Assembly: GCA_021780675.1 (NCBI GenBank)
Contig: JAJXYH010000034.1
Coordinates: forward strand, 19,889 to 83,888
DNA: 64,000 nucleotides
From: a bacterium
Lineage (GTDB): Bacteria > Patescibacteriota > Microgenomatia > Levybacterales > UBA12049
Direction of reading: 5' to 3'
This document shows positions 42,792 to 47,508 of the stretch, piece after piece; within the stretch, counting starts at the first letter, position 1, and each line of letters starts with the position of its first letter. Under the pieces are notes generated by a model. That model was not told the origin of the DNA. It searched no databases and was given only the letters and a program-made list of their open reading frames with translations. Position numbers and translations under genes: made by a program.

Positions 42792-43013
42792 TTAGCTTGA
42801 TTTTACAATCTAAATGTTCATTCTCAACGCCTCATAGTCAATTTTTTTTAGCCTCGTAAATTTATGTGATTTTGGATATTTTAAAGACCCCCAAATTTAC
42901 TAAAGGCTTAAGTTTATAACTATCGGTGACCATATGGTTTTAATTTATGTCGTAGAACTCAAGTTGTAAGACTTAATAAAAATAACTATTGACGTGCATT
43001 ATTAAGTAATGAT

Positions 43014-43033
43014 ATATTCGATATATCGAATAT
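43014..43033 (+). promoter_or_regulatory. perfect 20-bp palindromic operator overlapping the ArsR-family gene start
   Basis: ATATTCGATATATCGAATAT ends inside the ATG at 43032. An upstream TTGACG with an extended -10 TGaTATATT gives a promoter. Confidence 0.55.
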
Positions 43034-43526
43034 GTATTACGAAGTATTTCAGTTACATGCTAAGCTTTTAAAAGCTTTATCAAATCCCAAAAGGCTCGAA
43101 ATTATTCAACTAATTAGAGAAGAGGAACTACCAGTTGCAGAAATTCAAGAAATGCTTGATTTACCCCAAGGAAATTTAAGCCAACATTTACAAGTGCTCA
43201 GAGCTGCAGGCATTGTTAAGACAAGACGGGAAGGAAAACAAATTTATTACAGTATTTCCCATAAAAACTTTATTAAAGCAAGCGATTTATTTAGAGAGGT
43301 ATTGATAGAAAGAAATAAAGACGCTGTTTCAGATATAGCTTTTAAAAAAATGGCCGATCTTGTTCCTTTAACTTCAGATCCGGTATGCGGGATGAGAGTA
43401 AGCCCTAAAACTTCGGCGTTTGCTTACAAAAACACTGGGGATGAATTTTATTTCTGCGGTTCAGGATGTTACGAAAGATTCAAGAAATACCCTAAAAAAT
43501 ACATCAGAGCAGTAGCATTCGCTTAA
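43032..43526 (+). CDS. ArsR/SmtB-family transcriptional regulator with C-terminal YHS metal-binding domain
   Basis: ArsR wHTH (LSNPKRLEIIQLI...LSQHLQVLRAAGIV) plus a YHS/TRASH-like DPVCGMRV...YFCGSGCYERF tail. Confidence 0.7.
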   Translation: MYYEVFQLHAKLLKALSNPKRLEIIQLIREEELPVAEIQEMLDLPQGNLSQHLQVLRAAGIVKTRREGKQIYYSISHKNFIKASDLFREVLIERNKDAVSDIAFKKMADLVPLTSDPVCGMRVSPKTSAFAYKNTGDEFYFCGSGCYERFKKYPKKYIRAVAFA

Positions 43527-43530
43527 TTTT

Positions 43531-43884
43531 ATGGACAAAATTATTGTTAGTATTGTTGGCGTAGTTTTTATCGGTTTTATTTACTGGTTTTTCTTAGGAA
43601 AAAGAGAGAAAGGAGTAAAAGCCGAACGTTCCATTGATGTTCTGGTTAAAGGTGGTTATACCCCATCAAAAATTATTATTCCTCAAAATAAAACTACGAC
43701 CATCAATTTTACAAGAGAAGACTCCAATAGCTGTCTTGAAGAAGTTGTCTTGTCTGATTTTAAAATAAGAAAATATCTTCCCATCAATAAAACGGTCAGT
43801 ATACAAATAAATCCATCAAAGAAAGGAGATTTTAATTTTTCCTGTGGAATGGGAATGTTTCACGGAAATTTAATTGTCGAATAA
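43531..43884 (+). CDS. membrane-anchored cupredoxin-like domain protein (paralog of the 46082 gene C-terminus)
   Basis: N-terminal TM helix. The C-terminus YTPSKIIIP...SNSC...[16 protein letters not shown] aligns with the C-terminal domain of the 344-aa protein. Confidence 0.5.
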
Positions 43885-46085
43885 TGGATAATAAAAAAAC
43901 ATATGCGGTAAAAGGAATGCATTGTGCTTCATGCGTAAGGGTTTTAGAAAAAGCAATTGGGAAAGTTGATGGTGTTAAAGAAGTTAGTGTAAATTTAGCA
44001 ACTGAAAAAGCAGCTGTATCTTTTTCGAAGAAAGTAGAAGATCAGGAAATAAAAAATGCCGTACAAAAAGTAGGGTATGGATTAGAAGAAGTAAATGAAG
44101 ACGCCGAAAAAGTTGAAAAACAAAAACAATTAAGTGATTTAAGAAATAAACTTACACTCAGCTTAGTTTTGGGTTTTTTGATCTTTTATGGAAGTTTTCC
44201 AGGTTTAATGAAATTTTCACCTGTGTTACTTCAAAACTTTTTAGTTCAACTTCTCTTATCATTGCCCGTTCAATTTTGGGCAGGACTAAGCTTTTATAAA
44301 GCCGCAATTCCAGCTTTTAAGAATAGGACTGCCAACATGGACACTCTGGTTGCGGTCGGAACATCGGTTGCTTTTTCTTATTCGGTTTTTGTAACTCTTT
44401 TTCCCCAGATTCCAAAATCGATTGGAATAGAGCCAATGCCCTATTTTGACGTTTCAACAATTATTATTGGTTTAATTCTTTTAGGCAGATATTTTGAGGC
44501 AAGAGCTAAAAGCAATACCTCAGAAGCAATTAAAAAGTTAATGGGACTATCTCCCAAAACAGCTAGAGTGATTAGAAATGGAGAAGAATTGGATTTGCCA
44601 ATTAGTGAAGTTATTGTGGGTGATGAAATAAGAGTTAGGCCTGGGGAAAAGATTCCGGTTGACGGAACTATTTTAGAGGGCGAATCTTCAATTGATGAAG
44701 CAATGATTACAGGCGAAAGTATTCCTGTAGATAAACTTAAAGGCGATGTCGTAATTGGTGCGACCATGAATAAGTCAGGAAGCTTTACTTATAAAGCTAC
44801 AAAAGTAGGAAGTGAAACTATGCTCTCACAAATTATAAAACTTGTTCAGGAGGCTCAGGGAAGCAAGGCCCCAATCCAAAGAATTGCCGATTTAATTTCT
44901 TCGTATTTTGTTCCGGTTGTCATAATGCTATCGGTATTAACTTTTGTAATCTGGTATGATTTCGGACCTGTACCGTCATTTTTATTTGCTCTCTTAAACA
45001 TGGTTGCAGTTTTAATTATTGCTTGTCCTTGTGCCATGGGACTTGCAACACCAACGGCCATCATGGTCGGAACGGGTAAGGGAGCGGAAAACGGTATTTT
45101 AATTAAAGATGCGCAGAGTTTAGAATTGGCTCATAAAATAAATGCGATTGTTTTTGATAAAACCGGAACTTTAACAAATGGAAAACCGGAAGTAACTGAT
45201 ATATTAGGAGAAGATAAAAATAAGATTTTAATGTTGGCAGCATCCTTAGAAAAAGGCTCAGAACATTCTCTTGCTACTGCGATTATTCAAAAAGCGGAAA
45301 AAGATAAAGTTAAACTTATTAAAGTTGAAAAATTTCAATCAGTCGTAGGGCATGGTATTCAGGGTGTAATAGCAGGAGAAAAAGTAGTCCTAGGTAATAA
45401 ACGCTTTATGAAAAAAGAAAACATTGATATTTCTAGTTTGGAAAAAGATATAGACCAATTAGAAGAAAGCGGCAAAACAGTAATGATTTTGGCTGTTGAT
45501 GGAAAAGAAGTGGGAGCTATTTCTGTTGCCGATACCCTTAAGGATAGCGCTAAAGAAGGAGTTTCACTTTTGAAGAAGATTGGCATTGAAGTTTTTATGA
45601 TAACCGGTGATAACGAGAAAACAGCAAACGCAATTGCGAAATCGATAGGAATACAAAACGTTTTAGCAGAAGTTTTGCCAAGTCAAAAAGAAGAAGAGGT
45701 CCGAAAAATACAGGCAAAAGGAAAAATTGTTGCAATGGTTGGAGACGGAATAAACGATGCTCCTGCTTTGGCAGCAGCCGACATAGGAATTGCCATGGGA
45801 ACGGGAACAGATGTAGCGATTGAGGCAGCGGATATAACTTTACTAAATAAAGACTTAAAATCAGTTTCGCAATCAATTAATCTCTCGAAAAAAACAATGA
45901 GAACAATAAGACTTAATTTATTTTGGGCATTTGGTTATAACATCGTGTTGATACCTGTTGCGATGGGTTTACTTTATCCGTTTTTTCATCTGTTCCTAAA
46001 TCCTATCTTTGCGTCTCTGGCAATGGCCTTAAGTTCAATATCGGTAGTAACTAATTCACTTACCCTAAAAAGAGTCGCAATATGA
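43884..46085 (+). CDS. copA: copper-translocating P1B-type ATPase
   Basis: N-terminal HMA (GMHCASCV), CPC in TM6, [15 protein letters not shown]; 733 aa. Confidence 0.9.
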
Positions 46086-47116
46086 ATATAACCAGCTTAA
46101 TTTCAATATTTTTAACAGGACTGTTAACAGGCGGTCTTAGCTGCATGGCCGTTCAAGGAGGACTTCTGGCGGCAACATTGGCTCAAAGGGAGGAAGAAAG
46201 ACTGAAGAGCAATTTAAAAAGTGGCGGTAATGCTATACCAATTATCTCGTTTTTAGTTGCAAAATTGGTTGCTTATACGATTCTAGGATTTTTGTTGGGT
46301 TCATTAGGTTCTGTATTCCAATTGTCGTTATCTTTAAAAGTTATTATGCAAATCGCAGTAAGTATTTTTATGCTTGGGACTGCTTTTAATATTTTAGATG
46401 TTCATCCTATTTTTCGATATTTTGTAATCCAACCCCCTAAATTTCTAACAAGACTTGTTAGAAAACAATCCAAGAGTCAGGATGTTTTTGCTCCGGCTAT
46501 CTTAGGATCCCTTACCATTTTTATCCCTTGCGGTATTACGCAGGGAATGATGGCTTTAGCCATAGGGTCAGGTAGTCCTTTATCGGGGGCATTGATACTT
46601 TTTGCATTTATTCTTGGTACATCACCCATATTTTTTGTGTTGGGATACTTTGCAACAAAGCTCGGAGATATATTCCAGCAAAGATTTATGAAAATTGTAG
46701 CTTTTGCAATCATTTTCCTGGCAATATTTAACATCAATAATGCAATTACCTTAAGTGGAGTTAAGCTTCCATTTGGTGATATAGCTAAAAATGTTTGGTG
46801 CACATTTACTATATGCGACAATGTTACTTCGGGAACTAATGTTGCAATAAACAATAGTCCTACGATTACTATTGGAGCTGTAAGTTATACCCCAAATATT
46901 ATAAGTGTAAAAGCAGGAGCACGGGTAAAATTGAAGCTTGTGAACACAGAGGGAACAAGTTGTATTCAGGCCTTTACAATACCTAGCTTAGGATTGCAAA
47001 AAATAGTTCGTCCCGGAACATCTGATGAATTAGATTTTATAGCCCCAAGTACACCTGGACAAATTCCATTCATGTGTAGTATGGGAATGTTTAAGGGGGT
47101 GATTAACGTACTATGA
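46082..47116 (+). CDS. CcdA/DsbD_2-like polytopic membrane protein fused to a C-terminal cupredoxin-like domain
   Basis: TM Cys motifs LSCMAV and [16 protein letters not shown] resemble CcdA TM1/TM4. The C-terminal domain YTPNIISV...GTSC...[14 protein letters not shown] is paralogous to the 43531 protein. Confidence 0.5.
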
Positions 47117-47331
47117 TAAAGAAAGTTTTTAAAATAAAAGGAATGCATTGCACTAGTTGTGCAATAAATATAGACGGAGAGTTAGAGGATACAGATGGAG
47201 TAAAACAAGCTAATACTAATTATGCAAAGGTTATTACTGAGGTTGAATTTGACCCAAAAAAAATAAATGAAGAGCAAATTGTGAAGTTAATTAAAAAGGT
47301 TGGTTATGATGCTGCTCTAGTAACAAATTAA
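47113..47331 (+). CDS. copZ: copper chaperone CopZ (HMA domain)
   Basis: 72 aa with GMHCTSCA and a ferredoxin-like fold. Confidence 0.85.
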   Translation: MIKKVFKIKGMHCTSCAINIDGELEDTDGVKQANTNYAKVITEVEFDPKKINEEQIVKLIKKVGYDAALVTN

Positions 47332-47470: not shown

Positions 47471-47482
47471 AATGAAAAATAG

Positions 47483-47508
47483 TGGCTAATCGCCACCTTT
47501 TTTATTTG
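47483..47508 (+). terminator. rho-independent terminator after copZ and repeat A
   Basis: GTGGC-TAAT-CGCCAC followed by CTTTTTTATTT. Confidence 0.6.

Follow-up and report, generated by a model that had tools for sequence, protein, structure and literature searches.

A predicted copper operon with two CupA-type cupredoxin domains, one of them fused to a DsbD_2 membrane protein, in a Patescibacteria-type bacterium

The operon and its CupA-type protein

The window analysed here, a stretch of 64,000 nucleotides (nt) with a G+C content of about 33% (contig JAJXYH010000034.1 of assembly GCA_021780675.1), contains a compact operon of five genes on the + strand, which according to the open reading frame (ORF) listing encode a regulator, a 117-amino-acid (aa) protein, CopA, a 344-aa fusion protein, and CopZ, in that order. 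The operon is copper-regulated and built from two modules, a cupA-like gene with copA and the gene of the fusion protein with copZ; the fusion protein, in which a DsbD_2 membrane domain is joined to a CupA-type cupredoxin domain, is the main subject of this report. SecA is encoded upstream and a 157-aa ORF downstream. Genes overlap at TAATG (43882-43886, where the 117-aa gene overlaps the copA start by one base), ATGA (46082-46085), and ATGA (47113-47116), and otherwise nearly touch. The nearest relatives of the window proteins are found in Levybacteria and other Microgenomates, of the Patescibacteria group. The principal genes and features are listed below by position in the window, with strand and basis of assignment.

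43531-43884, + strand: putative CupA-type Cu(I) chaperone, 117 aa, N-terminal membrane helix and cupredoxin domain (Pfam, PDB match, AlphaFold).
43534-43599, + strand: membrane helix of the 117-aa protein, residues 2-23 (hydropathy, model).
43732-43734, + strand: candidate ligand C68 of the 117-aa protein (alignment to CupA).
43843-43857, + strand: candidate ligands C105-G-M107-G-M109 of the 117-aa protein (alignment to CupA).
43884-46085, + strand: CopA, P1B-1 Cu(I)-exporting ATPase, with N-terminal HMA (C14xxC), CPC at residue 381, and DKTGT at 425 (Pfam, NCBIfam, motifs).
46082-47116, + strand: 344-aa fusion protein, with a six-helix membrane domain (DsbD_2) N-terminal to an extracytoplasmic cupredoxin domain of CupA type (Pfam, topology, conservation).
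46106-46726, + strand: DsbD_2 (PF13386) membrane domain of the fusion, residues 9-215 (Pfam).
46142-46144, + strand: Cys21 in helix 1 of the fusion, in LSCM (conservation).
46403-46423, + strand: conserved cytoplasmic motif HPIFRYF of the fusion (conservation).
46529-46531, + strand: Cys150 of Pro-Cys150-Gly in helix 4 of the fusion, in IPCG (conservation).
46799-46816, + strand: linker motif C240-TFTI-C245, just past helix 6 of the fusion (conservation).
46850-47104, + strand: Cupredoxin_1 domain of the fusion, residues 257-341 (Pfam).
46961-46963, + strand: candidate ligand C294 of the fusion (alignment to CupA).
47075-47089, + strand: candidate ligands C332-S-M334-G-M336 of the fusion (alignment to CupA).
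47113-47331, + strand: CopZ-type HMA copper chaperone, 72 aa, motif GMHCTSC, conserved partner gene of the fusion (Pfam, NCBIfam, gene context).

In the Pfam scan the 117-aa protein matched Cupredoxin_1 (PF13473) with E 1e-21 and 77 bits (cut-off 27); it was further matched to CupA of Streptococcus pneumoniae (PDB 4F2E/2MRY; E 4.5e-19) and to the cupredoxin metal-binding domain in the CopA of that species (4F2F; E 6.5e-6). The AlphaFold model (predicted local distance difference test, pLDDT, 88.4) consists of a helix (residues 2-23) and, after it, a beta-barrel, and its best match in the PDB is 4F2E, on which it superposes at 1.2 Å over 96 alignment columns, with a template modelling (TM) score of 0.89 on the target and 38% identity. 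A first reading of the window, made from the sequence alone, had proposed structure prediction as a check on the cupredoxin fold; this superposition, together with the profile match of the fusion domain given below, bears the fold out.

In a gapless alignment, C68, C105, M107, and M109 fall on C74, C111, M113, and M115 of CupA, and all four are invariant in 30/30 homologues of the 117-aa protein. In the CupA crystal structure these residues bind two Cu(I), with C74 and C111 as the high-affinity site and C74, M113, and M115 as the low-affinity site (PMC5646241; PMC7558416). The Cys/Cys/Met/Met set pointed out in the sequence-only reading is thus present and invariant, but it is that of the CupA family and not new; likewise, the four candidate ligands do co-align with one site, as had been expected, but by homology with a binuclear cluster and not with a mononuclear center. 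Convergence of the ligands was judged by superposition on Cu(I)-CupA and by the aligned residues, not from distances. H111, also conserved in the 117-aa family, aligns with the histidine that follows CupA M115 and lies outside the reported CupA ligands (PMC5646241). The earlier suggestion of Cu(I) trafficking rather than electron transfer was right; a type-1 blue copper electron carrier was rejected because the ligands differ, the positions holding Cys and Met and not His-Cys-His-Met.

The 117-aa protein is a membrane-anchored CupA homologue, and adds to the CupA family a member whose lineage and pairing are both unexpected. Its homologue search returned 360 cluster representatives, the few with a source name belonging to Patescibacteria lineages. 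In the pneumococcus the partner of CupA is a cupredoxin domain of CopA, a pairing that has been presented as specific (PMC7558416); the partner CopA in the window carries an N-terminal HMA domain with CxxC and no cupredoxin metal-binding domain, and therefore departs from the CupA pairing. An E1-E2 ATPase and a hydrolase domain accompany the HMA domain of CopA in the Pfam scan. The soluble domain of the 117-aa protein is probably cytoplasmic, by analogy with homologous CupA; loop charges agree weakly, with Lys+Arg of 3.1 after the helix versus 1.0 before it and acidic residues also frequent, which leaves a weak orientation signal.

The fusion protein: cupredoxin domain, membrane domain, and topology

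Both Pfam families named in the sequence-only reading were matched by the fusion, residues 9-215 by DsbD_2 (PF13386; E 8e-31, 107.9 bits, cut-off 24.9) and residues 257-341 by Cupredoxin_1 (PF13473; E 5e-13, 49 bits). The two cupredoxin domains of the window align with each other better than chance (25% identity, E 1e-7), in agreement with the earlier description of two paralogous cupredoxin-like domains, one fused to a membrane protein. The profile of the fusion C-terminal domain had its best match in CupA (E 7.4e-8), with the Cys and the CxMxM loop aligned, and also matched the CopA domain 4F2F; CupA 4F2E is the closest solved structure for both window domains. By fold and by ligand set the C-terminal domain of the fusion is of the CupA type, and it is predicted from its sequence to bind copper. 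C294, C332, M334, and M336 are invariant in 30/30 fusion homologues; in the wider family, sampled as 150 representatives of clusters at 50% identity, they are conserved in 123/126, 122/126, 109/123, and 111/123, respectively. The next-closest structure is an uncharacterised Cupredoxin_1 domain of Bacillus anthracis, solved with Cu and with Zn (PDB 4HCF/4HCG/4HCI); its ligand-loop positions hold His in the alignment, and it therefore has a different type of site within the same Pfam family.

Six hydrophobic membrane segments were found in the fusion by hydropathy. Over 30 homologues, the mean number of Lys+Arg is 4.6, 6.2, and 1.0 in loops 1-2, 3-4, and 5-6, respectively, and 0.03, 0.03, and 0.1 at the N-terminus, in loop 2-3, and in loop 4-5; by the positive-inside rule both termini are therefore placed outside, and the cupredoxin domain is extracytoplasmic. 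Four of the 150 representatives, all distant (P0362, P0366, P0377, P0382), carry an HMA domain without signal peptide, one extra hydrophobic helix, DsbD_2, and cupredoxin; this order puts the HMA domain inside and the N-terminus of DsbD_2 outside. These HMA-bearing relatives give independent support for the topology, and a physical tie of HMA to the membrane domain. Tandem double cupredoxin domains were seen in P0255, P0313, P0330, and P0382, the last also with a Cys/Gly-rich linker, SCGGGGGGCGCG.

Among the representatives, the membrane cysteines are near-invariant (C21 in 124/125, C150 in 145/146); further conserved residues of the membrane domain are Q25, K61, H108 (in HPIFRYF), T153, Q154, M156, and M157 (Met or Glu). 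The CX4C of the linker, C240/C245, is invariant in 30/30 of the Patescibacteria subfamily and present in about 20/130 of the wider family; lying at the outer membrane surface, it could be a stepping stone for metal or for electrons. The membrane part had been described as CcdA/DsbD-like from its cysteines in LSCM and IPCG, which holds as far as the DsbD_2 match and the conservation of both cysteines go, but the fusion is not a true CcdA: its PF02683 (CcdA-type) score of 21.4 bits is below the gathering cut-off of 27.1. The match to DsbD_TM is weak (E 1.8e-4), and many homologues have a precomputed PF02683 match. No significant match was obtained between the fusion profile and the CcdA structure 5VKV (E 6), and hhalign of the fusion versus Tsukamurella CcdA gave a probability of 0.2; the PCG of helix 4 lines up with the PCI motif of CcdA, though not significantly. 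The full-length AlphaFold model, made from a 30-sequence alignment, has an overall pLDDT of 60 and a predicted TM score of 0.39, the membrane part being poor.

In NCBI and JGI records the fusion is named 'sulfite exporter TauE/SafE family protein'. It had no match to Pfam TauE at E <= 0.01 and no transporter match in NCBIfam, and identity as a TauE/SafE sulfite exporter was rejected for want of a model match. The NCBIfam scan likewise gave no MerT, MerTP, or MerC match.

Spread and gene context of the fusion-copZ module

Homologues of the fusion number at least 3968 proteins at E <= 1e-5, the best 120 all of the same architecture, and are encoded in at least 544 species-representative genomes. 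The module spans at least four phyla, Patescibacteria, Actinomycetota, Deinococcota, and Chloroflexota, with full-length copies on plasmids of Deinococcus, Tsukamurella, Mycolicibacterium, Streptomyces, and Chlorohelix. A link to MerH was considered and dropped, as no Mycobacterium marinum plasmid was among the tblastn matches.

Gene context was sampled in 80 related loci; denominators of informative loci are given separately. A copZ/HMA gene stands 3' of the fusion gene on the same strand in 77/80 loci; two of the other three end at contig ends, which leaves 77/78 informative loci, and the median gap between the two genes is 6 nt. The pair is also found in 5/5 plasmid loci examined, from the three other phyla. 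The association with copA is looser: copA ends <=400 nt upstream of the fusion in 37/69 informative loci and is absent from the locus in 15/69, and the Deinococcus and Chlorohelix plasmid loci hold the fusion-HMA pair without copA. A separate CupA-like gene occurs in about 35/80 loci and in each of them closely precedes copA, either adjacent to it or at most a few hundred bases away; in several loci, e.g., L064, L072, L078, and L080, the cupA-copA unit stands apart from the fusion-copZ unit or is inverted relative to it. The two units are therefore separable, and the window operon is two modules side by side. The sequence-only reading had both cupredoxin copies flanking copA with copZ following; this gene order holds but reflects two separable modules.

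The regulatory features of the window operon are as follows.

42989-43018, + strand: sigma-70-like promoter 5' of the operon, TTGACG, 18-nt spacer, and TATATT, with TG (consensus match only).
43014-43033, no strand: perfect 20-bp palindrome ATATTCGATATATCGAATAT, overlapping the -10 box and the regulator start codon (sequence).
43032-43526, + strand: regulator, 164 aa, ArsR/SmtB helix-turn-helix with C-terminal YHS/TRASH metal-binding domain, C119...C142-x3-C146 (Pfam, NCBIfam).
47482-47496, + strand: terminator-like hairpin followed by a T run, 3' of copZ (consensus match only).

The regulator matched HTH_5 (2e-13) and YHS (1.5e-11) of Pfam and NF033788 (2e-26) of NCBIfam, and the palindrome is probably the operator of this ArsR-type repressor. 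The ArsR-YHS type was seen in the window and in L012 (a 78%-identical copy), in the place where related loci have CsoR, which is found upstream in 41/80. Three elements are new relative to the sequence-only reading: the regulator gene, the linker CX4C, and the CupA precedent for the ligand set.

In about a dozen loci, a BlaI/CopY-like repressor and a BlaR1-like M56 peptidase precede the fusion, mostly with a membrane-anchored DsbA-like protein (CPFC motif); the set is seen at 3285-5461 of L006, and also in L001, L007, L016, L017, L025, L033, L041, L045, and L072. In the window operon no thioredoxin-like partner was found, and tblastn for DsbA-like proteins across the window gave no match. CsoR and an ArsP_1-family permease stand directly upstream of the fusion, in the place of copA, at 4565-5998 of L010 and in L051 and L039. 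The Tsukamurella tyrosinosolvens plasmid NZ_LR134469 (L082, 3414-10475) encodes a P-type ATPase, the fusion, HMA, merA (about 474 codons), and a multicopper oxidase; in a Deinococcus locus (L081) the module has merB and a gene of the MerR family close to it. In Streptomyces sp. F12 pFRL6 (L083) and in L082, a genuine CcdA with TlpA, peroxiredoxin, or glutaredoxin genes stands beside the fusion-HMA module. L083 further has CopC and a BlaI/CopY-M56 pair close by, and each of the two loci looks like a large, composite island of metal and redox genes.

Candidate routes across the membrane and comparison with known systems

Two modules would operate side by side in the window operon. The 117-aa protein, tethered to the membrane and probably facing the cytoplasm, would bind Cu(I) at its CupA-type binuclear Cys/Met site and feed it to CopA, by which Cu(I) would be pumped out. 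In the second module, cytoplasmic CopZ (CxxC) would exchange Cu(I) with a mid-membrane pair, Cys21 of helix 1 and Cys150 of helix 4, which in turn would exchange it with the outer CupA-type site C294/C332/M334/M336; in the Patescibacteria subfamily the transfer may pass by way of the linker CX4C. Metal rather than electrons would thus cross the membrane. For the fusion as a trans-membrane thiolate ligand-exchange relay of Cu(I) with CopZ we see about an even chance. As to direction, there is a slight lean toward outward transfer, with inward uptake of the Mer kind nearly as likely. Outward transfer is favored by co-regulation with copA under copper-sensing repressors, and by the LysE superfamily, to which the DsbD family belongs and in which efflux carriers predominate (PMC4608589). 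The constant pairing with CopZ and the occasional HMA domain on the same chain are as predicted by metal hand-off and are not predicted by a conduit for electrons; a disulfide pair of the CcdA type could equally form a linear bis-thiolate site for Cu(I) or Hg(II), with conserved Met, Gln, Thr, and Lys around it.

Several points weigh against a metal relay: every experimentally characterised DsbD-family member moves electrons, not metal (PMC4608589); the positions of the membrane cysteines are those of the redox pair in CcdA; in 10-15/80 loci the gene directly upstream of the fusion encodes a membrane-anchored DsbA-like protein; no sequence-level homology of the fusion to a proven metal permease was shown; no metal path is visible in the fusion model, because its membrane part is poorly modelled; and an exporter fed by CopZ would duplicate CopA, while an importer in a copper-induced operon looks futile. 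The position of the cysteines and the DsbA-like neighbours also speak for a conduit like CcdA, DsbD, and ScsB, in which Cys21 and Cys150 would pass reducing equivalents of thioredoxin outward with no metal moving through the fusion. The outer CupA-like cysteines would then be kept reduced or reduced again, perhaps via CX4C, so that the domain could take up the Cu(I) that CopA releases, or reduce Cu(II), a reaction shown by CupA in vitro. We hold such a conduit to be rather unlikely, yet the main rival of the metal relay. It has the family ancestry on its side, the DsbD_2 match being strong and that to DsbD_TM weak, as well as cysteines in helices 1 and 4 as in CcdA, a CX4C between membrane and domain that is invariant in the subfamily, and C294 and C332, which outside the cell need keeping reduced. 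Functions reported in the DsbD family include copper and mercury resistance (PMC4608589), and the cysteines of CupA reduce Cu(II) and then need a reductant (PMC5646241). It leaves unexplained, however, the HMA gene 3' of the fusion in nearly every locus and on every plasmid examined, and the HMA domain fused on the same chain; moreover, the PF02683 score is under its cut-off, helix 1 has no prolines beside its cysteine, CX4C is missing from most of the wider family, and a thioredoxin-like partner was not found in the window. The separate genes for genuine CcdA and TlpA in Actinomycetota loci count against it as well, as the reductant pathway is therefore supplied separately in the Streptomyces and Tsukamurella loci. 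Metal relay and electron conduit are not fully mutually exclusive, and the sequence-only reading, with its relay of 'reducing equivalents or metal', had the correct two alternatives.

The inward case of the metal relay, in which the outer CupA-like domain would capture Cu(I), or Hg(II) in some relatives, and pass it by Cys21/Cys150 to CopZ, is improbable on its own, at somewhat above one chance in five. It would mirror the path from MerP to MerT to NmerA, and also CopC with CopD and EfeO with EfeU, the cupredoxins of EfeO and FtrB being among the structural neighbours of the window domains. The known pairs of an extracytoplasmic binding domain and a permease, MerP/MerT, CopC/CopD, and EfeO/EfeU, are importers. 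The Tsukamurella module lies directly 5' of a short merA, which we take to be too short for an N-terminal HMA domain, the Deinococcus module has merB and a MerR-family gene nearby, and by NCBIfam the window CopZ is about as close to the MerTP and MerT/CopZ fusion families as to the CopZ models; in some lineages mercury uptake may be the task of the module. Yet merA was directly adjacent in one inspected locus only, no homology to MerT was detected in NCBIfam, and the control of the operon together with copA by copper-responsive repressors makes import followed by export look futile. It is very improbable that the two parts of the fusion are uncoupled, the membrane domain being an anchor or an unrelated permease, the outer domain a passive Cu(I) buffer or an acceptor for CopA like CusF, and CopZ serving CopA only. 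Periplasmic acceptors for CopA, e.g., CusF, are known, and copA directly upstream in 37/69 informative loci would fit one, but against it stand the near-invariance of the membrane cysteines, the loci that keep the module in the absence of copA, and the relatives with HMA fused to the membrane domain.

Returning to the preferred reading, the fusion and its HMA partner would form an unrecognised class of soft-metal transporter, for Cu(I) or, in some lineages, Hg(II), working by stepwise thiolate exchange from CopZ through a buried Cys pair that derives from the DsbD scaffold to an outer CupA-type binuclear site, and so re-using the architecture of a redox relay; we rate this wider proposal a little short of even. 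Ligand set and fold were already known, and the DsbD_2-CupA-type fusion with obligate CopZ is abundant and, as far as the literature search showed, undescribed. No study describing a DsbD_2-cupredoxin fusion was found in that search, the nearest being the CsoR regulon prediction for COG2836 (PMC4938975). CupA homologues with identical ligands are common in Patescibacteria beside HMA-type CopA, which loosens the rule that cupredoxin pairs with cupredoxin. Widespread, conserved, and misleadingly named, the fusion-CopZ module is a candidate new pathway by which copper, and perhaps mercury, could cross the cytoplasmic membrane; in it a DsbD-type thiol scaffold may have been adapted from redox to metal handling. 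A metal relay, if true, considerably raises the interest of the finding; an electron conduit, if true, would be the first Cu(I) chaperone domain with a built-in supply of reductant.

Compared with CupA (S. pneumoniae, 4F2E, 2MRY), the 117-aa protein has the same N-terminal membrane helix and cupredoxin domain, the same Cys...Cys-x-Met-x-Met with the same 37-residue spacing, and a gene directly upstream of copA with a copper-responsive repressor; it differs in that CopA here has HMA and not a cupredoxin domain, that CopZ is also present, that a second copy faces outward on a polytopic membrane protein, and that the host is an uncultured Patescibacteria-type bacterium. The N-terminal cupredoxin domain of S. 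pneumoniae CopA (4F2F) shares the fold and the CxMxM loop and matches both window domains, but sits on the cytoplasmic N-terminus of a P-type ATPase, whereas the fusion domain is at the extracytoplasmic C-terminus of a DsbD_2 protein. A segment of a heavy-metal P-type ATPase on the Candidatus Manganitrophus plasmid CP114558 (65776-66000, hit H17) shares 38% identity with the CupA-type domain, so CopA proteins that bear a cupredoxin metal-binding domain are not confined to streptococci.

With CcdA, DsbD, and ScsB (PF02683, TC 5.A.1) the fusion shares the six-helix core with a 3+3 repeat, one Cys each in helices 1 and 4, and the N-out, C-out topology, and with DsbD and ScsB also fused extracytoplasmic domains and a link to copper tolerance; in contrast, it falls in the sister family PF13386 and below threshold for PF02683, its outer domain is a cupredoxin of Cu(I)-binding type and not a thioredoxin fold, and its obligate gene partner is an HMA metallochaperone. 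The likeness to MerP/MerT/NmerA, including MerTP and MerT-CopZ fusions, is in the logic of mechanism only, with an outer soft-metal domain, membrane cysteines, a cytoplasmic HMA, and thiolate exchange; MerT has three helices versus six in the fusion, the outer Mer domain is HMA and not cupredoxin, and no homology was detected. CopC-CopD/YcnJ and EfeO-EfeU/FtrB-FtrC also have an extracytoplasmic cupredoxin-type domain coupled or fused to a permease, but the permease families, the ligands (His and carboxylates, or Met for Cu), and the metals are others, and there is no cytoplasmic HMA partner. COG2836 (HMA, DsbD_2, and DUF2318), which a regulon prediction places under CsoR in Firmicutes of the gut (PMC4938975), is likewise uncharacterised and resembles the module in the tie of DsbD_2 to HMA and in copper-responsive regulation; its outer domain is DUF2318, and its HMA lies on the same chain and has no gene of its own.

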